From: Spirochaetia bacterium
Lineage (GTDB): Bacteria > Spirochaetota > Spirochaetia > WTKD01 > G963693115
Assembly (NCBI GenBank): GCA_963693115.1
Contig: OY843750.1
Coordinates: 252,680 to 316,679, forward strand
DNA: 64,000 nucleotides
Direction: 5' to 3'
Of this stretch, positions 1-46,023 are shown one piece after another. The notes under the pieces are model-generated. The model did no database searches, was not told the DNA's origin, and saw nothing but the letters and a program-made list of their open reading frames with translations. Position 1 is the stretch's first letter. Every line of letters starts with the position of its first letter. The position numbers were made by a program, and so were the translations under genes.

Positions 1-343
1 TCAACATTTTCTGCCCTTAGATAAGAAAAAGCATATTGAGCATATCTTGCCACAGAATTTGAACGATAATAATGGCTGGAATGAAATCTTTACACCAGAA
101 GAACGAGAAAAGTACACCAATTGCTTGGGCAATTTAACTCTGTTATCTATGAGAAAAAATATTCAAGCACAGGACAAGAATTTTAAAGAAAAAAAAGCGA
201 TATATACTAATGGAGATAATATAGCTACCTCTTTTGAACTGACAAGGCGAATTTTTGAAAATTCAGTTTGGACAATAGAAGAAATACAAAGGAGACAACA
301 ACAGATGATTGAGGATCTAAACCAAGAAATTAAAATTTTCTGA
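1..343 (+). CDS. GmrSD-type (DUF1524, His-Me/HNH-like) type IV restriction endonuclease, C-terminal fragment; 5' end outside the window
   Basis: The frame is open from nt 2; the ORF-track M at 47 is an internal TTG. KHIEHILPQN ... NCLGNLTLLSMRKNIQAQDKNFKEKK fits the (D/E)H-x2-P ... GNL-x-LL ... N nuclease core of DUF1524. Confidence 0.6.
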   Translation, partial: QHFLPLDKKKHIEHILPQNLNDNNGWNEIFTPEEREKYTNCLGNLTLLSMRKNIQAQDKNFKEKKAIYTNGDNIATSFELTRRIFENSVWTIEEIQRRQQQMIEDLNQEIKIF

Positions 344-527
344 TTTGTACTAAATATGCCAATATCTAAAAAACCAATAATCAGTAGAGGCAAAGTTAAA
401 AAATCACAGATGCGCCTACTAGCAAACACAAACAAAATATACAACTCTTTTATTGGCGATAAAGCCAACAAACTTAAAATTGACTTAATAGACCTAGAAG
501 CCTCTTATAGCCGATATAAGATACATT

Positions 528-1115
528 ATGCCACAAATAGAAACGCTATTGACCCAAGTTAGGGCGTGTACGGTATGCCAAGAGCACCTTCCCCTGGGGC
601 CACGACCTGTTATTCAACTGCACCCTAAATCTAAAATTTTGATAGCTGGACAAGCACCCGGAATAAAAGTGCACAAGTCCGGCGTACCCTTTGACGATGC
701 AAGCGGTAAACGATTGCGAGACTGGTTGGGACTTTCTCGTGAAGAATTTTACAACGCCAAATTAGTATCAATTCTACCTATGGGATTTTGCTATCCCGGC
801 ACAAGCTCTTCGGGCGATTATCCGCCACGCCCCGAATGCTCAAAAAAATGGCGCCATACATTATTATCCCAACTAAAGGCTTTGCAACTAACTGTGGTCA
901 TCGGTCAGTACGCTCAAGCATATCATCTTGATAAATCCCAGCGTTCTGTCACAGAGAATGTTCAAGCTTGGAAACAGTATTGGCCTAAGATCATACCCCT
1001 GCCCCACCCCAGCCCTAGAAACAATCCTTGGTTAGTGCGCAATCCTTGGTTTGAACAAGAATTGTTGCCAAAATTAAAAAATAGAATCAACGAAGTACTA
1101 GAGCGTGATGCCTAA
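528..1115 (+). CDS. uracil-DNA glycosylase superfamily protein (family 4/5-like)
   Basis: 195 aa. CTVC near the N-terminus, motif A GQAPG, motif B HPSPRN near the C-terminus. A small GC hairpin (ctgcc..ggcag, 1137-1152) lies downstream. Confidence 0.7.
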   Translation: MPQIETLLTQVRACTVCQEHLPLGPRPVIQLHPKSKILIAGQAPGIKVHKSGVPFDDASGKRLRDWLGLSREEFYNAKLVSILPMGFCYPGTSSSGDYPPRPECSKKWRHTLLSQLKALQLTVVIGQYAQAYHLDKSQRSVTENVQAWKQYWPKIIPLPHPSPRNNPWLVRNPWFEQELLPKLKNRINEVLERDA

Positions 1116-1433
1116 CAAACACTTTCCGCTTGATAACTGCCCGCGAAGGCAGACTTAAATCGTTAAAAGAGACACCTGCTCTTGGCAAGTTCCTCCTTCA
1201 TCAATCTCAACAAAAAAAACAGGTTTTCTGTTAAACTACAACTAAGATGCAGATTAACTACCACACTAGGCAAAACAAGTCGCAAAAAAACTGCAGGAAC
1301 ATAGCAAAAACAATATGAAAAACAAAAATCTTACCATTGCCAAAAAGACGAAAATCAGCCTACGCTGAAATAATTTTTCCTTTTAAAGTAAAGTGAATTG
1401 TAATTAAGAGGTTAAGATTAATAGTATAAAAAC

Positions 1434-3416
1434 ATGCAAATAAAAATACCTACGATAGACAATCAAAATTCTGAAATAATAAACATCTCTAATCAAAAAT
1501 CTTGTATATTGGTTGGAGCAAGTGGCGCTGGGAAAACAAGACTCAGTATTTATATTGGTGAACAAATAGAAGCAACTTATAAACGTCACCTAGAGTGTAA
1601 AAATGAAATTGGAAGATTAAAAGAAAAATTAGAGGAATGGGAAAACAAAAAAGATGATGATGTTGAAAATAACATTGCACCATATGTGAGTATAAAATAT
1701 AACATTTTTAACAAAGATAGGAAACAAGAAGTTCAGGTTAGTTTATATGAGTTTATAAATATTTGCTTAAAAAGCAATTCGATTACCCAGTTTAATGGAA
1801 CCACTTCTATTACTGCTCCACCGCAAAGTCTTGAAGATATACAAGGGGGAACATTATCACATCCAAGTTTCGGTACAAAAGGAATTGATGTAGATTTATT
1901 AAAGTACTCAGAAAAATACCGTACAGCAGACAATAAAGAAAATATTATTAAGGATTACATTAATTACAATAAAAACAGAATTAAAAAACGCATAGAAACC
2001 AACGAGGAAGAACTAGAGGCATTTGGTAATCCTATTTTTGAGAAAGTACACCGTATCTCTGCTCATAGACAACTTACCCTCAATCAAAATTTATCTCCAA
2101 CAAGACTGGAGCAAGCAAAGCCTCAATTAGTAAATCCGAATAGTGGACAGTGGCAAAAATCTATCACAGCTATACAAAACGACTTTGGTAAATTGATAGT
2201 ACTTCTTTACTCTGAAGAGGCAGAAATATCATCAGAATATACTCAAAAAATCCGAGAAAAGAAACAAGCGAAAACACCTCAATCTGCATTAAGTAGTTTA
2301 ATCAAATTTTGGAATGATATTTTGCCCCACAGACAACTTACTCTAAAAAAGTTAACAATAGAAGTTCAAAATATAAATGACACAAACACCTACGCCCCCT
2401 CTGAAATGAGTGATGGAGAAAGAAATATTTTTTATATTTTAGGACAATGCTTACTTGCTCCCAAAGATTCTTTATGCATTATTGATGAACCAGAATTACA
2501 TATAAATCGCTCTATAGCCAATGATTTTTGGAATTACATTAAAGAAAAGCGTCAAGATTGTGCTTTTCTATTCATTACTCACGATATTGATTTTGTCAAT
2601 GCTAACTCAGACGCTCAAAAATATTTTATTAAGAAATACCAGCATCGAAACAAATGGCATATAGAAAACATAGATAAAAAAAATGAAAGAGGCTTACTGG
2701 AAAACATTAAACTGATTGTATTGGGATCTAGAAAAGATGTCATTTTTGTTGAAGGAGGATATGACTCTCTGGATTTTATAATTTATAGTAAGGTTTATAA
2801 CGATTATTTTATTATACCCGTTGGTTCATGTCAGCAGGTAAAACAACAAGTTAATGCGATTGCTCAAAACAAACAATTTCACCATATTAAAGCTTATGGA
2901 ATTATTGATGGCGACAGTTTAAATAATGAAGAAAAACAAAATAATCAAACAAATCAAATATATGCTTTGTCGGTTGCTATCATTGAAAATATTTTTCTGT
3001 TGGAAGAGGTTATCAATAAAATATGTAAAATAGAAAATATTGAATTAGATAAAAATTATAAAGATAAAATTTTTAATTTTGTAACGGAACATCAAAAAAG
3101 TGATTTAAAAAAGAAAACAAAACATAGACTTGGCAGTGAAATACAAGCATACATAAACGAGAAAGAAATAGATAGTCTAGAGCTAGAAAAATTTGAACCT
3201 AAGAAACTTTATAAAAATTTTGAAAATGAGTTAAAGGGGTTTATTGAAACAAAAGATTTAAATAAAGTTTTATCTTTTTGTCAGAATAAAGGTTTATACC
3301 AAACAATATTAAAACAAGTTTTAAATTGTAACGATGTTAAATTAAAAATAATATCTTTATTAAGACAAGAAGATGTTTTAGATTGCATACGAAAACATTT
3401 ACCATCTATAAGGTAG
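1434..3416 (+). CDS. ABC-type ATPase fused to a DUF4435/OLD-type Toprim nuclease domain (PARIS AriA-AriB-like single-chain protein)
   Basis: 660 aa. Walker A GASGAGKT, long helical insertion, signature-like SDGERN, Walker B LCIIDEPELH, H-loop FITHD. The C-terminal ~200 aa (VIFVEGGYDSLDF ... IIPVGSCQQV ... GIIDGD) looks like DUF4435/Toprim. Very AT-rich codon usage compared with the rest of the window. Confidence 0.65.
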   Translation: MQIKIPTIDNQNSEIINISNQKSCILVGASGAGKTRLSIYIGEQIEATYKRHLECKNEIGRLKEKLEEWENKKDDDVENNIAPYVSIKYNIFNKDRKQEVQVSLYEFINICLKSNSITQFNGTTSITAPPQSLEDIQGGTLSHPSFGTKGIDVDLLKYSEKYRTADNKENIIKDYINYNKNRIKKRIETNEEELEAFGNPIFEKVHRISAHRQLTLNQNLSPTRLEQAKPQLVNPNSGQWQKSITAIQNDFGKLIVLLYSEEAEISSEYTQKIREKKQAKTPQSALSSLIKFWNDILPHRQLTLKKLTIEVQNINDTNTYAPSEMSDGERNIFYILGQCLLAPKDSLCIIDEPELHINRSIANDFWNYIKEKRQDCAFLFITHDIDFVNANSDAQKYFIKKYQHRNKWHIENIDKKNERGLLENIKLIVLGSRKDVIFVEGGYDSLDFIIYSKVYNDYFIIPVGSCQQVKQQVNAIAQNKQFHHIKAYGIIDGDSLNNEEKQNNQTNQIYALSVAIIENIFLLEEVINKICKIENIELDKNYKDKIFNFVTEHQKSDLKKKTKHRLGSEIQAYINEKEIDSLELEKFEPKKLYKNFENELKGFIETKDLNKVLSFCQNKGLYQTILKQVLNCNDVKLKIISLLRQEDVLDCIRKHLPSIR

Positions 3417-3420
3417 CCTA

Positions 3421-3624
3421 ATGAAAACTTACGAAGTGCTTTTAACAAAATCTTACATTGTCACCATTAAGGCTGACAACAAAGATCTAGCAAAAGAATT
3501 TGCACAACTATATACGAGTGATATATCTGACATTTCTTATCTAAAAGAGAAAGAAGAATATTTTGAAATTGAAGATATTGATTGTAAAATCAATGAAGTT
3601 TTTGAAGTAATAGAAGCACAATGA
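3421..3624 (+). CDS. small acidic hypothetical protein (67 aa), operon partner of the ATPase-Toprim gene
   Basis: It starts 4 nt after the upstream stop, and its stop overlaps the next ATG (ATGA). E/D-rich, with no recognisable motif. Coding status is supported only by this tight coupling. Confidence 0.45.
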   Translation: MKTYEVLLTKSYIVTIKADNKDLAKEFAQLYTSDISDISYLKEKEEYFEIEDIDCKINEVFEVIEAQ

Positions 3625-3780
3625 GAACAATCGAAGTAAAAATATCTGAAGGAGACAGCAAAGATGTCTTAAAACAATTAGATGATAATTCTATTGATCT
3701 AATTGCCACATCACCACCCTATGCAGACGGATGAAAGCAAACTTATGGCAGTGTAAGACCTGAAAAATAGGTTTAAATCG
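3622..3780 (+). pseudogene. remnant of an N6-adenine/N4-cytosine DNA methyltransferase (truncated and frameshifted)
   Basis: Encodes MRTIEVKISEGDSKDVLKQLDDNSIDLIATSPPYADG, then TGA. The next frame continues KQTYGSVRPEK, then TAG. SPPY is catalytic motif IV. The >200 aa needed for a functional enzyme are missing; only scattered short frames follow up to ~3950. Confidence 0.6.
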
Positions 3781-4114
3781 TACAATCCAGATCCTGCTGA
3801 TATGCCTTTTCAAAAAATCAGGCGCCCATATAAGCGAAAAAGCTCAATATGAGATTCAAAAAATTATAGATAATTTAGGCTCAGCCACCGACAAACCAAA
3901 CCAAACAAAAGAAATTGAAGTTATTAGGAATGGCGCAGAAGGCATTTAATCAGACTGGCAAAATCACCTCAAAATTCGCCCCTAAAATCTTCAGTGGGCT
4001 TTTTCAAGCCCACTGACCAAACCTACTATGCTCTATGTGCTCTCAATGCCCCTATAGTGTTTCTCAAACGCACTATAGCGCCTTGCGGTGCCTTTTTTGT
4101 ACTCCTGTAACATC

Positions 4115-6301
4115 CTAAGGTGCGGTATAAGGCTTCTGCGCTTCTGCGCTGTTTGGTATATCACCAAAGTCGGGGAGTTTTTGACTATCATTAGAATTGC
4201 TAACAACAGCTATAAACGCTGGCCATTGCCCTGCGGTAAAACTCCATTGGAGTCCAGTAAGTCCTATAAACTCTGCCTTTATCGCATCCCCGGTATCGCT
4301 GCTCGCTACGCTCACTTTTTTCCCAGGCTCAGTGGACGCGCGGTAGTTTGTTGCACTTTCGTCAGTAGTAGGGCTATAGGCGATCCGTTTGCCATTACTC
4401 AGCTGGTACAATCCCCCTTCATCATCCTTAGCCGAATAATAAAAACTAGCTGTACTAGTGCTAGTATCTTTTCCTATTGTGAGACCAAAGTCGGTAGCAT
4501 TACTAGGAACACTCGCCGTACTGATAACATTGCCCCTAAAATATCCTGAGCCAGTAGTAAAGTTATCGGAAGCATATCCTACTAGTCCTCCCACGCTATC
4601 TGCTCCTATCACATCTCCTGTGGCATAACCATGTAAAGAAGATTGACCTATACTACTCACAAGCCCTCCTACGTTTTCATTACCCCGTATAGTGCCAGTA
4701 GAAAAGCCGCTCATACCACCACTCTCTACATATCCAGACAATCCCCCCACGTAGTCCCCGCTCGCACTAACATCTCCAGTGCTATAACCCCTCGCAAAAT
4801 TTTCAGTGCTATAGCCTGCCAGCCCGCCTACATACTTGGTACCCTGTATAGTACCTGTTGCATAACCAATCCCACCATACGCATATCCCGATATGCCTCC
4901 TACATACTCCTCACCAGTTATATCTCCGCTCGAATAGCCATATATTGGACCTCTATTTTGTCCTGCGATACCTCCCACATAGTTCTTTCCTGTTACATTG
5001 CCAGTGGTATAGCTCTTTGTTATTTCACCAACTCCGGATCGCCCCCCTATCAAACCTCCTACATAGCTCCCTAAGGCCTCCACTGCTACCGCTGATGAGC
5101 TCTCTGTCACTGCTGGGTCTGTATCACTATCCATATGCCCCACAAGCCCTCCTACATTAACATCACTGTCAGCTGCTGCTGTGCTCTTCACCGATCCCTT
5201 GCCTTCCTCATCTTCTGTAATATGGACATTGCTTATTGCCCCTCCAGTATACTTGCCTACCAGTGTTCCTACGTTCTTTCCTCCTATTATCTCTGCTCCC
5301 TCTATCCTTACATCATTGATATTACCACTCGCTACTCCAAATAATCCTATATCATCTCCACTACTCTCTATCCTTAAGCCTCGTATCGTATTGTCTCCCC
5401 CATCAAAACTCCCACTAAAACCTGTGGTACTGTCTCCTATAGGGTCATACCCTGCTACTGTTTCTCCCCGCTCATTACAGGACTGATAGGGTAGTTCTAT
5501 GTCTTCTGTCATCGTATAGCTACTCGCTAAGCTTGCTCCTGTTGCTGCTGTTCCTGCTTTCCTCGCTAACCACTCTAACTCTCGCCATCCTTCTATCGTA
5601 TACCATGTTTCTCCTGTCTTCTTCGTTGGTACTACGGTCCCGCTATCCTTGCCTACTACACCGCACCAACTCTCTATATCTATTACTATGCTTACACTCG
5701 CTACTCCTACTGCATCAGTTGCTCTCGCTTGTACTGCTATTGTATAGCCTTCGGTGTATTCTTTATGGAGTCCTCTCCCTATGCTGATTGCTCCACTACT
5801 CTCATCTACTTGTACATGCTCATTGGGTTTGCTCAATGTGTATGCTACTCCACTGGGGGCACTCCCTCCTTCCCACTCGGGTGCTTCTGTTGTGTGCTTT
5901 GTTTGTTCTAATATACTCAGTTCTGTTCCTGTTGTTTTATACTCAAAACTCCCTATCAAGGTTCCTACTTCTAGTTTGATGTTTAGGGTGTAGGTTCCTT
6001 TGTAGTTTCCTGTTCCTGTTGCTTTTATGGTGTATACTTTGTTGTGTTGCCCTGCGTCTACTTCGGTTATCGTGAGTATGCCTTTTTCTTTGTCTATGCT
6101 TAGACCTTCTCCTTCTTGTTCTAGGCTATAGCTTATGCTTTGTCCTGCTTTGCTCCATTGGGGGTAGAGTGTTATGCTTGTTCCTTCTACTATTCCTATG
6201 ATCATTGAGGCTATTCCCTCTACTTCTTGTAAGGGTGATATTACGATACCCTCTGCTTGGCTGGCTTGGTTCTCTAGGCTATAGCTTAGTTCTCCACTCA
6301 A
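4115..6301 (-). CDS. GLUG-motif repeat surface protein with N-terminal Ig-like repeats; probable lipoprotein whose signal peptide is out of frame with any start codon
   Basis: 728-aa ORF starting at TTG. At least 8 repeats of (N/Y)VGGL(V/I/A)G = GLUG motif. Upstream, the same frame encodes LVLISLALTCILGGLFLTC (lipobox) but has no start codon; see findings. Confidence 0.75.
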   Translation of the reverse strand: MSGELSYSLENQASQAEGIVISPLQEVEGIASMIIGIVEGTSITLYPQWSKAGQSISYSLEQEGEGLSIDKEKGILTITEVDAGQHNKVYTIKATGTGNYKGTYTLNIKLEVGTLIGSFEYKTTGTELSILEQTKHTTEAPEWEGGSAPSGVAYTLSKPNEHVQVDESSGAISIGRGLHKEYTEGYTIAVQARATDAVGVASVSIVIDIESWCGVVGKDSGTVVPTKKTGETWYTIEGWRELEWLARKAGTAATGASLASSYTMTEDIELPYQSCNERGETVAGYDPIGDSTTGFSGSFDGGDNTIRGLRIESSGDDIGLFGVASGNINDVRIEGAEIIGGKNVGTLVGKYTGGAISNVHITEDEEGKGSVKSTAAADSDVNVGGLVGHMDSDTDPAVTESSSAVAVEALGSYVGGLIGGRSGVGEITKSYTTGNVTGKNYVGGIAGQNRGPIYGYSSGDITGEEYVGGISGYAYGGIGYATGTIQGTKYVGGLAGYSTENFARGYSTGDVSASGDYVGGLSGYVESGGMSGFSTGTIRGNENVGGLVSSIGQSSLHGYATGDVIGADSVGGLVGYASDNFTTGSGYFRGNVISTASVPSNATDFGLTIGKDTSTSTASFYYSAKDDEGGLYQLSNGKRIAYSPTTDESATNYRASTEPGKKVSVASSDTGDAIKAEFIGLTGLQWSFTAGQWPAFIAVVSNSNDSQKLPDFGDIPNSAEAQKPYTAP

Positions 6302-6486
6302 TGTGCTTATTACGGGACTTGTTTCTCCTGGTTCTGGGTCGCTACTACAGGTGAGGAAGAGTCCTCCTAGTATGCATGTAAGAGCTAGGGAGATGAGGAC
6401 GAGTCCCCCTGTCCGATTGTTTGCTCGGCAACTCCTTGCTTGGTTGGTGGCTTGGTGGTAGCTTTGGTGCTTGCCTTGCTACTATG

Positions 6487-6535
6487 ACTTTGTTTGAGGT
6501 CTTGTTTGAGGTCTTGTTTGAGAGTCTTGTTCTTG
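6487..6535. repeat. 12-bp tandem repeat (gtcttgtttgag), about 3.5 copies, in the 5' leader of the GLUG gene
   Basis: Read directly: gactttgtttgag gtcttgtttgag gtcttgtttgag agtcttgtt. Confidence 0.85.
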
Positions 6536-6823
6536 GTGTGATATTGTATTGTAATGCATGGCATTCTCCTTTGACCACTATTTACTTGGCCTTAGTGTTT
6601 GGTCTTTTTTGACCTAATCGGGGTTATTACTGCTTCCTTGTAGCTCTAGTTTTTCTGGTTTTCTCCATGGTTTTTGCCTTGGCTATTGTTCCTTGGCTTA
6701 TACCCTGTCTACGATCTACGAGGCATAAGGATAGAAAACAGTACTATAATTAATATAGTATATTATAATATTTTTACTATGTAGAAACACGGTATGTATC
6801 GATATGGGTTTGTAAAAAAATTC

Positions 6824-8227
6824 TTAAATATGCCGAATTGCGTCAACAATTTTAAGCCTAAGCGCCTTAAAAGCAGGTATACTACTTGCAACAACAGAAA
6901 GTCCAATAACTGAAAACATAGTTATCAACGATAGCATAAGCGTTTCTTTGTCGAAAGGTGGTATGAGGTAAAGCGAGTAGGGCTTATTATAGGTTGGGGG
7001 AGGAGGAAGGATAATATCGAGCGAAGTAATAAATCTCCCAATTATATGAGCAAGTACAAACCCCACAACAGAACCTATGATACCAAGTACTATTCCCTCA
7101 TTAATAACCATAAAATATAGCGATGTTCTCTTAAGCCCTATCGATCGCAATGTTCCAAACTCAGAGATACGCTCAAATACACTCATACTCATAGTATTTA
7201 AAACCAAAAAGATAACAAGAAAAAACAATATGGTGCTCACCATCGAAAAAATATTGCTAAATAACTGTACTATGGGTTTGTAGACTTCGCTAAGATCAAA
7301 CCAGTGATATAACTCAAGATCTGCACCATAAGTCGCATCGTTCAAAAAATCATCAATAATAGTATAGGCTTGTTCCGTATCGCCTGTATCTTTGAGGTAG
7401 ACGATAATTCTATTAACAGAATCTGTACCCATTATCTCTTGAGCAAAACGCATATCGGTCTTTAGCAAGACATTACCATATTGACGCGAAAAAGTAGATA
7501 AGGTACCATTTACCTCTGCATCAAGAATATCAAAACTACCATACCTATTGACCGCTAAAACCGTTACATAGTCTTCTGGCTGTATACGTAGCTGCGTTGC
7601 CAAGCCTTCACCCAAAACCACTGCATAGGGGTTATCCGGGTCAAGCGCCGAACCATCACGTATGATATCATAACCCGCAATCTCATTGTCTATATCAGAT
7701 ACTACTCCTCTTCCTAAAAAGTTGAGTGATTCGCCACCAGAAGCAGAAGTAAGCGTGCCAGTAAAACTAAGCTCAAATGTAATAAAATCGAGCAACTCAT
7801 TTAAATCTTGGTCTGACTGCAAGCCTTCTACTATACGCTCATAGTCGGATATAAGATATTGCATAGGAGAGCCCGAACCATAGTCAAAAAATCCCTCTTT
7901 CATTATCTGAATATGACCAGTGGTTGAGCGTATCCCTATCTCTCTAACATTAAAAAAATTTCTGTTAAAGTAAACCCCAATAAGAATACTTCCTGTGACG
8001 GCACTTATAAGTGCAAGCAATGTGATGGCTGTTCTCCGTGTATTTTTGACCACATTTCTACATGCAAGACTCACATTTGACCTATCAATGCATAAGAACC
8101 AGATAAAAAATATACACGCACAGAGACCAAGACCCGCTACTATCCAATACACAAACGGAAAAGTCACTCCATACGGTATGCTTGCAAAATCAAAGTACTC
8201 CGCATTGGAGATATTTATATCGTTCAT
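6824..8227 (-). CDS. ABC transporter permease, MacB/LolC-E type (N-terminal TM, large periplasmic domain, C-terminal FtsX 3-TM bundle)
   Basis: 467 aa. One N-terminal TM, ~250 aa extracytoplasmic domain, and a C-terminal FtsX-like segment (VLNTMSMSVFERISEFGTLRSIGLKRT...). Confidence 0.8.
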   Translation of the reverse strand: MNDINISNAEYFDFASIPYGVTFPFVYWIVAGLGLCACIFFIWFLCIDRSNVSLACRNVVKNTRRTAITLLALISAVTGSILIGVYFNRNFFNVREIGIRSTTGHIQIMKEGFFDYGSGSPMQYLISDYERIVEGLQSDQDLNELLDFITFELSFTGTLTSASGGESLNFLGRGVVSDIDNEIAGYDIIRDGSALDPDNPYAVVLGEGLATQLRIQPEDYVTVLAVNRYGSFDILDAEVNGTLSTFSRQYGNVLLKTDMRFAQEIMGTDSVNRIIVYLKDTGDTEQAYTIIDDFLNDATYGADLELYHWFDLSEVYKPIVQLFSNIFSMVSTILFFLVIFLVLNTMSMSVFERISEFGTLRSIGLKRTSLYFMVINEGIVLGIIGSVVGFVLAHIIGRFITSLDIILPPPPTYNKPYSLYLIPPFDKETLMLSLITMFSVIGLSVVASSIPAFKALRLKIVDAIRHI

Positions 8228-8236
8228 CGCATAGCC

Positions 8237-8962
8237 CTACAAACTAGAAAGTTGTAAATACACACTCGCAGCATTATCGATATCTTTATCATCAAGATTT
8301 GTAAAAATACGTATAAGCGTTGTATGCAAGAATACATCGCTCTTTAAGCGAGCTGTATACTGCTTGTCGAGTAGCAGTGTCTTGATAAAGACGATGTCTT
8401 CTTGTACCGTGTCCTCGGTCTCAAATAGTTTTGGGAGATTTGCATAGTTTATTGCACGGTATGCGCGGACAAGGATGCTCTGAGAAAATTGCTCCACTAG
8501 GGTTTCAAAATGCTCAAAGCCACGCTCTACCTGCTTTGATGCCTCAAGCAACTGCCCCTTAGCATTGTATATGGATGCCCTAAAAAAATGCGCCTGCGCA
8601 TGATAGGTGGCAACATATAGTGAGTCATCATCTTTATTAAGTTCCTGCGATTGTAGATAGGCTTCGCCATACAAAAGAATAGACTCAATAATCTCAACAT
8701 TAGCACGAGACGCTTGCTTTAGCTGTTGCTCACGCATCGCCTGAGTAATAAAGCTAGCTACGAGTGCCATATTATCCGAATCTGCCTTCACTTTTTCTTG
8801 GAGTTCGAGCACTTCGCGAGATACAGGTGTTGTTCTCTGACAAGCACTCAATGACAAAAATGCCAGCATACTCAACAAGAGATACAGAAAAAAATGTGAT
8901 AAAAATTGAAAAAAGCCAAATATAGAAAAACCAAATTTAGAAAAATCAGCTATATGCTTCAT
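8237..8962 (-). CDS. hypothetical all-helical (TPR-like) lipoprotein
   Basis: Preferred start is ATG 8962 (GGAG 9 nt upstream, 2 nt after the upstream stop). Signal peptide ends in the lipobox LSLSAC. The remainder is helical repeat-like with no catalytic motif. Confidence 0.6.
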   Translation of the reverse strand: MKHIADFSKFGFSIFGFFQFLSHFFLYLLLSMLAFLSLSACQRTTPVSREVLELQEKVKADSDNMALVASFITQAMREQQLKQASRANVEIIESILLYGEAYLQSQELNKDDDSLYVATYHAQAHFFRASIYNAKGQLLEASKQVERGFEHFETLVEQFSQSILVRAYRAINYANLPKLFETEDTVQEDIVFIKTLLLDKQYTARLKSDVFLHTTLIRIFTNLDDKDIDNAASVYLQLSSL

Positions 8963-8964
8963 AA

Positions 8965-9657
8965 TTATTTTCTCCAATGATCTACAATGATACCATCTTT
9001 TATCGAATACACATTTTCCACAAATTCGGCAATCATGTTGTCATGCGATGCAAAAAGCAGACTCGTTCCTCTTTTTTCTTGTAAATCCCTGAGCAAGGTA
9101 AGAATTTTTTCTCCGGTTTTGCTGTCTAAGTTGGCAGTGGGCTCATCCGCAATGATGAGTTTTGGCTCTATTACCAACGCACGTGCTATGGCTACTCGTT
9201 GACGCTGACCACCCGAAAGCTCATTAGGCTTATGTCGTGCATGGCTCAGTATTCCCGTGGATTCGAGGGCTGCGTGTACTCTTTTTTGTATTTCCTTTTT
9301 TTTAAACTTACTAATGGTAAGCGGGTACGCTACATTTTCAAATACATTGAGCACTGGGATAAGGTTAAAATTCTGAAAAATAAATCCTATGGTTCTACTT
9401 CTAAACTCGGTCAGTTGATCCTCCCGCATAGTAGCCACCTGTTGATTATCAACTTCGACGTAGCCTGACGTTGGTGTATCAATGCAACCAATCAAATTTA
9501 AAGTAGTAGTTTTGCCACACCCCGAAGGACCAACGATACTATTTGAACTCCCCTTTGCAATTGTAAGAGTGAGCCCCCTCAGAGCTGGGATAGTGACCTT
9601 ACCTAGCTGATAATTATGAACAACATCCTTCAATTTGATAATGTCCTGTGAGTCCAC
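8965..9657 (-). CDS. ABC transporter ATP-binding protein (MacB/LolD-type)
   Basis: Walker A GPSGCGKTT, signature LSGGQRQRVAIARAL, Walker B IIADEPTANLD, H-loop ASHD. Confidence 0.9.
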   Translation of the reverse strand: MDSQDIIKLKDVVHNYQLGKVTIPALRGLTLTIAKGSSNSIVGPSGCGKTTTLNLIGCIDTPTSGYVEVDNQQVATMREDQLTEFRSRTIGFIFQNFNLIPVLNVFENVAYPLTISKFKKKEIQKRVHAALESTGILSHARHKPNELSGGQRQRVAIARALVIEPKLIIADEPTANLDSKTGEKILTLLRDLQEKRGTSLLFASHDNMIAEFVENVYSIKDGIIVDHWRK

Positions 9658-9658
9658 G

Positions 9659-10459
9659 CTATAGTTTCTTTTCTTTTCTGTACTGAGTGATAATCAGACG
9701 CAAATCGGCATTGCTCACAAATGTCTCTGCCTGATCTAGATTTTTTCGAGCAAGGTCTGTTTTTTTACTCGTCAAATAAAACTGGGCAAAGCTAAGATAG
9801 ACATTTGCAATGAGGTTATTATAGTCCTGCTTATTATCCAAACGGTTGAGATCTTTGATGGCATCCTTGAGATTATCTTCACCTTCACGCGAGACTTTTA
9901 CAAAACGTGGTACATTACTCAACGAGGTGCCCCGTAAAAACAAAATAAAACCCGACAATAAATAGTCTTTTGAACCATCTTCAGTCTTCCGGTTTTGAGC
10001 CTCGACAAGGGCCTCATCCATATACTCTAAGCCTTTTTCTAAGTACTCTGTTTTCTTTCCTACTTTTCGTAAGGGCAATGCTCCTCCCCATAGTGCAAGA
10101 GAACTCCCCATGTAAGCCTTGATAAAAGGGTGCTTAAACTGATCCCCGCTTTTATACATAGACTCCCAGTACAGGTAATTTTTTTCTGCTTTATCCTTAT
10201 CAAAGGTAAAAAGTGCATCACGAAAGTACAATAGACCCAACTGAACCTGCTCTTCTTGGCTTGCAGGAGAACCACGCCCACTGATTTCCTTGAGCACCGT
10301 TTCATGACTCATAATATTTTCAGGAAGCATAATTAAATCTTGCGTAGCAAATATAGTTTGAGCATGAGCCCGAGTAAATCCATCACCTTGTCCTGTACGG
10401 TGAGCAAAAAATAACATGCACAGTAGCACGTAGATTAATATATGTCTGTTCTTTTTCAT
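9659..10459 (-). CDS. hypothetical exported all-helical (TPR-like) protein
   Basis: 266 aa. Signal peptide MKKNRHILIYVLLCMLFFAHRTGQG...AHA-Q. Its stop lies 1 nt from the ATPase start. No recognisable enzymatic motif. Confidence 0.6.
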   Translation of the reverse strand: MKKNRHILIYVLLCMLFFAHRTGQGDGFTRAHAQTIFATQDLIMLPENIMSHETVLKEISGRGSPASQEEQVQLGLLYFRDALFTFDKDKAEKNYLYWESMYKSGDQFKHPFIKAYMGSSLALWGGALPLRKVGKKTEYLEKGLEYMDEALVEAQNRKTEDGSKDYLLSGFILFLRGTSLSNVPRFVKVSREGEDNLKDAIKDLNRLDNKQDYNNLIANVYLSFAQFYLTSKKTDLARKNLDQAETFVSNADLRLIITQYRKEKKL

Positions 10460-10629
10460 AATAGCTCCTTTATCGCTAAGTATTAAATGTCTTAAATATA
10501 TGTTATTACTATTCTAAATTTTCTATTGCTAACATTGTATCACGATACTCTAATATATACCATATAAATTTGGCACAGAGTTTCAACGTATATCCACTAC
10601 TGTACCACATGTCGTGTCGCCTTCTGTCA

Positions 10630-10660
10630 TCACTAACCTAGTACGTCACTAACCTAGTAC
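10630..10660. repeat. direct repeat tcactaacctagtac x2 (16-bp period)
   Basis: Read directly. It lies in the 207-bp gap between the Omp85-like gene and the ABC cluster. Confidence 0.8.
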
Positions 10661-10666
10661 AACAAT

Positions 10667-12229
10667 CTACCAAAACACCTCGTTAAAACGAATGTCAATA
10701 AAATACCCCGTACTTATCGCCTCTTGTAAAGAGTGTTGAACAAAGCCTACCCCAATTTTTACACGGATATTCACGGGATTCGCTATATCGACATACAGAC
10801 CAGGTCCAAAACCCAACATAAAGATATCCTGCATGCCCGTCTCTCCATAGCCTTTGGGCGTATTCTGTAAAAATGCTATATCAGAATAAAACAAGGCTCC
10901 CAATACAAGCATATTACCAATAGGCCAGGCTCCATAATATTCTAACCCTGTAACAAATGCATCGACACCCCTACTTGGACGATTACCGTCAATGACACGC
11001 ACATACAACATACTACGCATATGTTCTTCGGCATAGTATACGTGCTCAAGGTTTGTTGCAAGCCCATCGGGTAAGTCGCTATTACCATTTAATGCAAGTT
11101 GACCAGCAATCCTTGCATGAATTGCATGATCATAGAGCGCCCTAAACCCTACCTGTCCCTCAAGATCAAAAGCGAGCCAGTACAGCGTATTCGTAACATC
11201 ATTAGTCTCGTTTTCATTTAAATCGCTTAGGTCGCTCACACTCACTTTTGTATGCAAGCCATAGCGTACATAGGATCGAAATACATCGGTACCAGAAAAG
11301 TTATTCTCTCCCAATAATGACACTCTTGAAAGACTACTCCACTTTGCAAGTTCTTCGTATTCACTTCTGTTAGAATTCAACTGTAGTCGTTGTGACACCA
11401 TAAGTTTGTACGCAGGACTTATTACAAATCCCCCATAACCATCAACGGAGCCCTGTGCATAGTGCAGGAACTCGTCAACAGAGTTTCTTAAGGTTGGAAC
11501 CACCCACAAAAATTCGCCTGTAATACCAAACTCAAAGCGCCACAATGGCTGTAACTCAATACCAAGAGGGATAAAATTACCATGATAAAAACTCCCCACT
11601 CGAGTTGCTCCCACATGAACACCCGTGGTTGCACCATTACGAAGCAAAAAGTACATGGAGGCATATGCGTTTCCTCCATTCCAGCCATAAGGAAAAGCTA
11701 CATCAGAAAATATACGTACTATCACGTCTTGTGTAGTAGCATCCTCAGCTATGATCTCATACTCGACAAATATACTTTTACTATCAAGATGACCGACATT
11801 CTTGAGAGCTCGCTCAGTAATTTTGATTCTCCGCAATAATACATCCACAGATATTTCTTGTTTTTCTCGTAGGGGAGAATACGTAAGAATCTCTTTTCTA
11901 TGCATGTATCCATTATCTTCAATACGCTCTTCTTGCACCACATTATCTACGTACACTATTATCTCACGTATTATAACTGTTTTTTCTACTGAGAGCACAT
12001 TGGACGATGCCTCACTAGCATCATTCGCTAGGGAACCATCAATAATAACAAGATCACCGGTATTCCCTGAATCAGGCGATTGTGCAAAAGATCGAAATGG
12101 AGATATAGCTACAAAAAGAATCGACGTTACAAGCATACCCACATACGCCATCACGAAGCATGCTAGTTTTATACGTATCCTGTTTTCTGTACTTATTCTT
12201 GTGCTTATTTTTTGGAGATTTTTTGTCAT
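10667..12229 (-). CDS. putative outer-membrane beta-barrel protein, Omp85/TamA-like with one POTRA-like domain
   Basis: 520 aa. N-terminal signal/anchor ending AQS. A ~90-aa beta-alpha-alpha-beta-beta-like segment (KTVIIREIIVYVDN...DVIVRI). Then a long alternating-hydrophobicity region rich in G/Y/F, ending in the aromatic terminus FNEVFW. Confidence 0.55.
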   Translation of the reverse strand: MTKNLQKISTRISTENRIRIKLACFVMAYVGMLVTSILFVAISPFRSFAQSPDSGNTGDLVIIDGSLANDASEASSNVLSVEKTVIIREIIVYVDNVVQEERIEDNGYMHRKEILTYSPLREKQEISVDVLLRRIKITERALKNVGHLDSKSIFVEYEIIAEDATTQDVIVRIFSDVAFPYGWNGGNAYASMYFLLRNGATTGVHVGATRVGSFYHGNFIPLGIELQPLWRFEFGITGEFLWVVPTLRNSVDEFLHYAQGSVDGYGGFVISPAYKLMVSQRLQLNSNRSEYEELAKWSSLSRVSLLGENNFSGTDVFRSYVRYGLHTKVSVSDLSDLNENETNDVTNTLYWLAFDLEGQVGFRALYDHAIHARIAGQLALNGNSDLPDGLATNLEHVYYAEEHMRSMLYVRVIDGNRPSRGVDAFVTGLEYYGAWPIGNMLVLGALFYSDIAFLQNTPKGYGETGMQDIFMLGFGPGLYVDIANPVNIRVKIGVGFVQHSLQEAISTGYFIDIRFNEVFW

Positions 12230-34685: not shown

Positions 34686-34795
34686 GCTTGGCAACTTCCT
34701 ACTCTCCCGCTTGCGCAGTACCATCGGCGTAGAAGGGCTTAACTGCCGTGTTCGGAATGGAAACGGGTGTTACACCTTCGCTGTTATCACCAAGC
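34686..34795 (-). rRNA. rrf: 5S ribosomal RNA (stand-alone)
   Basis: The reverse complement reads gcttggtgataacagcg...cccgtttccattccgaacacggcagttaagc...gccgatggtactg...gggagagtaggaagttgccaagc (110 nt). The ends form helix I (gcttgg/ccaagc). Confidence 0.92.
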
Positions 34796-42888: not shown

Positions 42889-43047
42889 ACCAACTATAAA
42901 TACACAGACATCAGAACACATCACGTTTTATATGGCAGTGGTATTAATACACACACCCTACAAAACCACAATACGGATAAATTCTACGCAATGCCATATA
43001 CAATGACACTACACAGAAATTTGATAATACGCTTTATAATGCAATTA

Positions 43048-46023
<2,976 letters not shown>

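Follow-up and report, generated by a model that had tools for sequence, protein, structure and literature searches.

At the left end of a 64,000-nucleotide (nt) stretch of Spirochaetia bacterium DNA (NCBI GenBank assembly GCA_963693115.1, contig OY843750.1, positions 252,680 to 316,679 of the forward strand; hereafter the window), a 660-codon gene, ariAB, is followed in the same orientation by a 67-codon open reading frame (ORF), orf67, which starts 4 nt past the ariAB TAG stop, and then by the 5′ stub of a DNA methyltransferase gene (Table 1). An original prediction, made without database searches, had described these genes as a fused relative of PARIS (phage anti-restriction-induced system), with AriA and AriB in one chain, embedded in a three-cistron unit not described for PARIS. 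Every ORF and motif that it listed was recovered at the same position, as were the 4-nt gap behind ariAB and the ATGA overlap between orf67 and the methyltransferase stub.

Table 1. Features of the ariAB locus and its left flank, in window coordinates
Feature	Position	Strand	Basis
GmrSD-family (type IV restriction) gene, 3′ end, leaving the left window edge	1..343	+	Pfam GmrSD_C, E 1.7e-19
ariAB, intact single-chain (merged) PARIS gene, 660 aa, ABC ATPase plus DUF4435/Toprim nuclease	1434..3416	+	profile matches
Walker A / P-loop GASGAGKT, aa 28-35	1515..1538	+	read from sequence
Subclade-specific insert of ~150-160 aa (aa ~45-205)	1566..2048	+	alignment with ordinary merged AriAB
ABC signature SDGERN (aa 326-331), Walker B IIDEPE (D351/E352) and H-loop (H383)	2409..2585	+	alignments A1 and A4
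DUF4435/Toprim nuclease domain, aa 436-598	2739..3227	+	Pfam DUF4435, PADLOC AriB
ariAB / cassette-remnant junction	3404..3420	+	blastn start points
orf67, intact leader cistron of a type II restriction-modification cassette, 67 aa, uncharacterised mildly acidic family	3421..3624	+	homologues, loci
Methyltransferase pseudogene stub, first ~51 codons of a beta-class N6/N4 DNA methyltransferase, through SPPY motif IV	3621..3776	+	
Terminator-like hairpin and T-run, possible end of the ariAB-orf67-stub transcript	4078..4101	+	consensus scan only, weak

The ariAB gene and its product

The 660-amino-acid (aa) product of ariAB was compared with profile libraries, and matched the PADLOC model of AriAB (PDLC02982) at E 6.7e-98 (326.8 bits), over aa 197-654 and profile positions 67-558 of 570. 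The separate models of two-gene PARIS also matched, AriB (PDLC02983) over aa 433-599 at E 7.9e-11 and AriA at E 7.6e-9. In Pfam, DUF4435 (PF14491) was found on aa 436-598 (E 1.7e-10, 41.5 bits) and AAA_21 on aa 315-385 (32.4 bits), both above the gathering cut-off of 27 bits, and PHROG 25246 matched at E 4.5e-87. The fusion of AriA and AriB proposed in the original prediction was thereby upheld, as was its reading of the C-terminal part as DUF4435/Toprim. Protein searches yielded more than 2000 homologues, mostly of ~535 aa with AAA_15/AAA_21 and DUF4435 domains and usually annotated as 'DUF4435 domain-containing protein'. Loci of relatives were gathered by an alignment-based metagenome scan; a search of genome contigs with the single protein as query gave no match.

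Both domains lie in one ORF rather than in separate AriA and AriB polypeptides, and we therefore class the protein as the merged and not the two-gene form. A single-gene ariAB fusion was already noted when PARIS was discovered (PMC9122126), and two 'merged' clades with a single origin from two-gene clade 9 have since been described (PMC11464382). With these proteins, as modelled in DefenseFinder and PADLOC ('merged 1/2' clades, PMC11464382), the window protein shares an N-terminal AAA_21-type ATPase, a C-terminal DUF4435/Toprim domain and the absence of a conserved partner gene; compared with a typical merged AriAB of ~535 aa it is about 125 aa longer, owing to an insert of ~150-160 aa. Sequence comparison thus supports its identification as a merged PARIS relative, a known kind of system.

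The residues expected of a working ATPase and nuclease are retained (numbering from alignment A1). In alignment A1, conservation is 90% or more at Walker A positions G28, G31, G33, K34 and T35, and the columns of the signature (S326-R330), Walker B (D351/E352, within IIDEPELH, aa 348-355) and H383 (within ITHD, aa 381-384) are invariant in alignments A1 and A4. The Toprim motifs read VIFVEGG (E440), IIPVGS (S465) and IIDGD (D492, D494), and the candidate catalytic residues E440 and D492/D494, together with E518/N519, are at least 90% conserved (alignment A1). Given this conservation across both domains, the ariAB product looks functional.

P2 Old, Gabija GajA, AbiL and MADS3-4 likewise pair an ABC ATPase with a Toprim nuclease, and the 660-aa protein could be a generic OLD-like enzyme of this kind (P2 Old, AbiL, MADS), acting on DNA or sensing a signal other than an anti-restriction protein. 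We consider this unlikely. The nuclease domain of the window protein is of the DUF4435 and not the Toprim_OLD type, matching DUF4435 and AriB with no Toprim_OLD match at E <= 1, and the merged AriAB model is the best in PADLOC by about 85 orders of magnitude, although weaker matches to mad3 (E 1.6e-10), AbiLi (E 1.1e-6) and PtuA speak for an OLD-like protein. Phylogeny places merged AriAB within PARIS, as a derivative of clade 9 (PMC11464382), and long-subclade relatives of the window protein are embedded in restriction-modification (R-M) operons, as would fit a guardian of R-M. The OLD-like alternative is further supported in that the family profile misses the solved AriA and AriB chains, that the insert in the sensor region is particular to the subclade and has no relatives known, and that the trigger-binding pores of AriA are poorly conserved (PMC11464382).

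orf67 and its type II restriction-modification cassette

The product of orf67 contains 16 D/E against 8 K residues (net charge -8, isoelectric point (pI) 4.3) and had no match among the families of Pfam, NCBIfam, PADLOC or PHROGs. Homologues nevertheless form at least 239 clusters at 90% identity, with 142 representatives at 50%, nearly all of them stand-alone proteins of 65-85 aa without annotation, and the mean pN/pS of 0.38 (528 pairs) indicates purifying selection; orf67 is therefore a real conserved gene, and chance does not account for the ORF. Its family as a whole is mildly acidic (median pI 4.7, median net charge -5, range -10 to +1), a charge range that weakens the idea of a strong DNA mimic. 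Searches for orf67 in phages, plasmids and IMG/VR returned no match, and a phage- or plasmid-borne anti-restriction gene was rejected as an explanation on that ground.

We surveyed 35 loci carrying orf67 (36 entered the co-occurrence profile scan described below), which derive from Bacteroidota, Ignavibacteriota, Spirochaetota, Atribacterota, Dehalococcoidia, Nitrospinota, Parcubacteria and others. At 17 of the 35, orf67 is followed directly by a closely related N6_N4 methyltransferase of 268-296 aa and then by an EcoO109I-family endonuclease, the orf67 stop usually overlapping the methyltransferase start. Frames are uninterrupted in 15 of these 17 cassettes, although in two of the 15 the endonuclease frame leaves the contig end. 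The cassette resembles EcoO109I-family R-M in that its endonuclease belongs to Pfam RE_EcoO109I, and its methyltransferase is of the N6_N4 (beta-class) type. Neighbours at the remaining loci include DpnII/BanI-like, Eco57I-like, C5-methyltransferase or HNH genes, and in other loci orf67 often starts 3-46 nt past an unrelated gene. On these comparisons we regard orf67 as a gene of R-M cassettes and not as a PARIS component.

The fullest cassette (L035, 104-3465) encodes a 528-aa N6_N4 methyltransferase, orf67, a 275-aa N6_N4 methyltransferase and an EcoO109I-family endonuclease, and is thus a two-methyltransferase system; most loci retain the first methyltransferase as N-terminal fragments only. 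'HTH-like' ORFs lying 5′ of orf67 were considered as controller proteins and rejected, as they are N-terminal fragments of this larger methyltransferase, which is intact in L035. In one 142-aa member of the representative library (P0295), the C-terminal end of an EcoO109I-family endonuclease is joined to an orf67 domain in a single ORF, implying that some genomes have the endonuclease-then-orf67 order or a fusion of the two.

Controller (C) proteins of R-M systems are small helix-turn-helix (HTH) DNA-binding proteins encoded upstream in the R-M operon. The place of orf67 matches theirs, and the order orf67, methyltransferase, endonuclease forms a likewise compact, co-directional operon in which a small first cistron is translationally coupled to the next gene. 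Unlike C proteins, orf67 is acidic, precedes the methyltransferase and not the endonuclease, and persists as an orphan under purifying selection; no HTH family matched at E <= 10 when 55 members were searched against Pfam. AlphaFold models built from 7 and 55 sequences reached mean pLDDT values of 67.6 and 62.1, and predict with low confidence a beta-beta-alpha-(alpha)-beta topology. This topology led us to consider an AbrB/MazE-like swapped-hairpin fold, which found no sequence support. Nothing matched the model at E < 4 in a Foldseek comparison with the PDB, and the orf67 profile retrieved nothing from PDB sequences.

Among 14 loci without a working methyltransferase and endonuclease, orf67 is intact in 13. 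Two diverged Bacteroidia genomes (L034 and L036, orf67 at 6001-6219 in both) share an orphan copy between dapB and the signal peptidase gene lepB, with gaps of 11 and 20 nt. Between these genomes orf67 shows a nonsynonymous divergence (dN) of 0.035 and a synonymous divergence (dS) of 0.44, hence dN/dS of ~0.08, and its dN lies below that of the flanking housekeeping genes (dapB, dN 0.092 and dS 1.29; lepB, dN 0.168 with dS saturated). The intact orphans and their low dN together argue that orf67 has a selected function of its own.

With low confidence, we suggest that this function lies in restriction alleviation or in establishment of the cassette, exerted at the protein level, for instance by transient inhibition of the endonuclease or as a cofactor to the methyltransferase; orphan copies, that of the window included, would then be kept as protection against re-invasion by related cassettes. 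Such an autonomous role is tentative, and would complement rather than compete with the reading of the locus given below. It agrees with the position of orf67 directly 5′ of the methyltransferase in intact cassettes, usually overlapping it, with the survival of the gene in decayed loci and the constraint on the L034/L036 orphan, and with a mildly acidic family in which no HTH was detected. The partners of orf67 are, however, endonucleases of different families, which argues against a specific endonuclease inhibitor, and one locus (L037) keeps an intact methyltransferase and endonuclease despite a frameshifted orf67, so that the gene is not essential for cassette maintenance. The absence of any structural or sequence relative, the low AlphaFold confidence (mean pLDDT 62-68) and the absence of the family from phages, plasmids and IMG/VR also count against it.

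The proposed junction of two defence elements

If orf67 were part of a PARIS unit, as originally predicted, it should recur beside other merged genes. A profile of orf67 run against 84 AriAB loci (542 kb) gave no match at E <= 10, and the reciprocal AriAB profile run against the 36 orf67 loci gave none at E <= 1e-3, while the positive control of the scan returned 38 matches. Among the loci compared, the two genes therefore occur together in this window only. None of the six AriAB loci of the long subclade (see below) for which downstream sequence was available carries orf67 downstream; a 48-aa ORF 3′ of AriAB in L002 was tried as a candidate and dismissed, as it has no evident similarity to orf67 and the orf67 profile found nothing in that locus. 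Absence of the small ORF from homologous loci, which the original prediction had named as evidence against itself, was thus observed for the 84 AriAB loci, while its corollary, that orf67 is a chance ORF, was not borne out.

The methyltransferase stub carries two in-frame stops (TGA at 3732-3734 and TAG at 3768-3770), the first of which closes a 37-aa ORF (3621-3734, plus strand) that shares the ATGA overlap with orf67, reads MRTIEVKISEGDSKDVLKQLDDNSIDLIATSPPYADG up to its stop and ends in SPPYADG. Against PADLOC type II methyltransferase models the stub gave a best E of 5.8e-8, and by tblastn it is 73% identical over 49-51 codons to the intact methyltransferases of two orf67 cassettes (L004 and L005). 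The half of the enzyme that binds S-adenosylmethionine is missing, and no endonuclease homology was detected in window positions 1-12000 at E <= 1e-4, so that the remnant does not amount to a complete type II R-M system with methyltransferase and endonuclease. The methyltransferase is accordingly dead, as first proposed, with 51 codons left. Independent stubs, each behind an intact orf67, occur in L023, L029 and L030, with 27, 66 and 79 aligned codons respectively, so that such decay is seen repeatedly.

DNA homology to the L004 and L005 cassettes (blastn) begins 2-17 nt 5′ of the orf67 ATG at 3421 and ends at ~3773-3776, leaving the 5′ ~355 bp of a cassette (~3404/3419-3776) in the window. 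The homology consequently extends over the last ariAB codons and their TAG stop, together with the AAGG motif for ribosome binding at orf67, and a gtagc(c/a)ta-ATG motif is also found 5′ of orf67 in L005, L013 and L014. The C-terminal tail of the window AriAB is the shortest in its subclade (alignment A1). From the position of the homology edge over the ariAB stop, the shared 5′ motif and the short tail, the 4-nt spacing is best read as a recombination or deletion junction and not as an evolved operon link. Flanking repeats that would mark an insertion were looked for and not found.

Taken together, the residence of orf67 in R-M cassettes and its lack of co-occurrence with AriAB suggest that the apparent three-gene unit is the junction of two elements and not a new system. 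We consider it highly probable that two independent defence elements abut here, an intact merged AriAB and what is left, at the 5′ end, of a type II R-M cassette. On this reading, positions 1434-3416 encode an intact merged PARIS protein and ~3404/3419-3776 are the stump of a horizontally mobile cassette of orf67, N6/N4 methyltransferase and EcoO109I-family endonuclease, the rest of which has been deleted; orf67 may retain an R-M-related function of its own, independent of PARIS. The proposed three-cistron PARIS unit is not supported, given the absence of orf67 from the 84 AriAB loci and of AriAB from the 36 orf67 loci, and the acidic mini-protein once suggested as decoy, antitoxin or partner is instead what leads a type II R-M cassette as its first cistron. 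In defence islands, close spacing and ATGA overlaps can stem from decaying adjacent mobile cassettes, and are not by themselves proof of an operon.

Several observations weigh against this reading. The 4-nt gap, with no terminator between ariAB and orf67, points to co-transcription, so orf67 is probably still transcribed with ariAB, and a secondary functional link in this genome may exist. The orf67 frame is intact, with all six invariant family residues kept (K10, T32, F48, I53, C55 and N58), and its net charge of -8 is more acidic than the family median of -5. On the ariAB side, a profile of the 660-aa family run against the PDB did not retrieve the solved E. coli AriA and AriB chains, so that the relationship to characterised PARIS is distant and the mechanism extrapolated, and no experimental test of a merged AriAB was found in the PARIS literature checked for fused forms.

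The first of these points would fit co-option, in which, after decay of the cassette, the acidic orf67 was recruited in this genome only as a modulator of AriAB, be it decoy, antitoxin-like inhibitor or trigger mimic. The close spacing without a predicted terminator before 4078, the intactness of orf67 beside a dead methyltransferase, and its place among the more acidic members of the family would all follow from such recruitment. We nonetheless judge co-option very improbable, since the two genes are found together at none of the 84 AriAB and none of the 36 orf67 loci, the junction falls within the stop region of ariAB and has the look of a scar left by deletion or insertion, and merged AriAB is found without any conserved neighbour. 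Orphan orf67 copies are also intact beside unrelated housekeeping genes, and the intactness of the window copy therefore needs no link to PARIS.

The long-insert AriAB subclade and the surrounding islet

In keeping with the presence of two separate elements, merged AriAB behaves as a stand-alone gene. Among 115 immediate neighbours at 82 merged-AriAB loci, no family occurred more than six times (HsdS 6, N6_Mtase 2, MmeI 2, C5 methyltransferase 1), and there is thus no conserved partner. The window protein adds a member to a rare subclade (P0002-P0010, about 10 clusters, 38-44% identical) whose insert lies between Walker A and the RISAHR segment, the latter aligning with RISAQ of ordinary merged AriAB. 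In alignment A1 the insert is present in P0002-P0008 and P0010 and absent from ordinary merged AriAB of ~535 aa. It has coiled-coil-like ends and a middle part with the conserved motifs SLxxIxGG and IDVDLLKFSEKYR, and its alignment gave no significant match to Pfam or the PDB, only weak coiled-coil noise. Of the parts of the protein, we take the insert as the most likely one to bind the trigger, and hence as a candidate module for trigger sensing.

Long-subclade genes with flanking sequence lie inside or beside R-M operons: the gene order is hsdM-hsdS-ariAB-...-hsdR in L001 and hsdS ... ariAB ... HSDR_N in L002, and in L119 a long-type AriAB directly follows the gene of an MmeI-type enzyme. 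This placement fits a role as 'guardian of restriction', as far as gene order can suggest one. Remnants of type I or MmeI-type R-M genes were looked for around the window ariAB and none were found. The notion of a guarded R-M remnant thus holds only loosely: long-subclade relatives do sit in type I R-M operons or behind MmeI, but the remnant in the window is an unrelated type II cassette and lies downstream. In L119 (5968-8008) AriAB is divided between two ORFs overlapping by 38 nt, one for the ATPase (395 aa) and one for DUF4435 (285 aa), which could reflect a frameshift or a re-split. Two adjacent merged AriAB genes in convergent orientation are found in L120 (44-1840 and 2599-4422).

In two-gene E. 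coli PARIS, an AriA hexamer sequesters AriB, binding of Ocr together with ATP hydrolysis frees AriB, and the freed AriB dimerises, the dimer cleaving tRNA-Lys in E. coli B185 (PMC10802264, PMC11464382, PMC12409363). The window protein shares with the B185 system (PDB 8UX9) both domain families, the sensor being an ABC ATPase and the effector a DUF4435 Toprim domain whose acidic catalytic residues are conserved, and presumably also the logic of trigger sensing, tRNA cleavage and translation arrest. By analogy, its ATPase part would sense a phage trigger, for example an anti-restriction protein; ATP binding and hydrolysis would bring about a change of conformation by which the C-terminal DUF4435/Toprim nuclease is unmasked; and the unmasked nuclease would dimerise and cut host tRNA, leading to a translation stop and abortive infection. 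In contrast to the AriA6:AriB3 complex, the effector here is covalently tethered and release of AriB cannot apply literally, so that activation would occur by unmasking in cis. The long-insert subclade with its tethered effector offers a natural test case for activation of this type.

What remains novel at the locus is the AriAB subclade with the long insert, together with the orf67 family, which is uncharacterised. The latter, unannotated at ~70 aa and spread from Bacteroidota to Dehalococcoidia, is a candidate new type of R-M accessory factor. A bolder proposal, which we put forward as speculative, is that orf67 represents a new non-HTH class of R-M accessory proteins whose orphan function is selected, in the window as elsewhere, and that the AriAB insert is a new trigger-sensing module specialised to guard the R-M operons in which its relatives lie. 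If true, orf67 would travel at the head of a type II cassette that is pan-bacterial, as its leader cistron.

The GC content of the segment from 1250 to 3750 is 0.24-0.34, against 0.42-0.47 in the flanks, and the segment therefore looks horizontally acquired. The GmrSD-family frame at the left window edge is open from base 2 and shares the low GC of the ariAB region, and the two genes belong to the same defence islet. Between them lies a uracil-DNA glycosylase-superfamily gene (528-1115) of host-like GC. Converging on the islet from the right is the gene of a 728-aa protein (4115-6301, minus strand) with GLUG-type repeats and a weak cadherin-like match, beyond which a MacB/FtsX-type permease and an ABC ATPase are encoded at 6824-9657.

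AriAB, orf67 and two other window proteins are singleton clusters in a collection of 15 billion proteins, where nothing else reaches 90% identity to them, and four further window proteins, under the start codons chosen, are not in that collection; the source, a 1.8-Mb contig, belongs to a poorly sampled lineage. Neither a 16S rRNA gene nor any tRNA gene lies in the 64-kb window. Its 23S rRNA gene (43047-46023, minus strand) and 5S rRNA gene (34686-34794, minus strand) stand ~8.2 kb apart, an unlinked arrangement.

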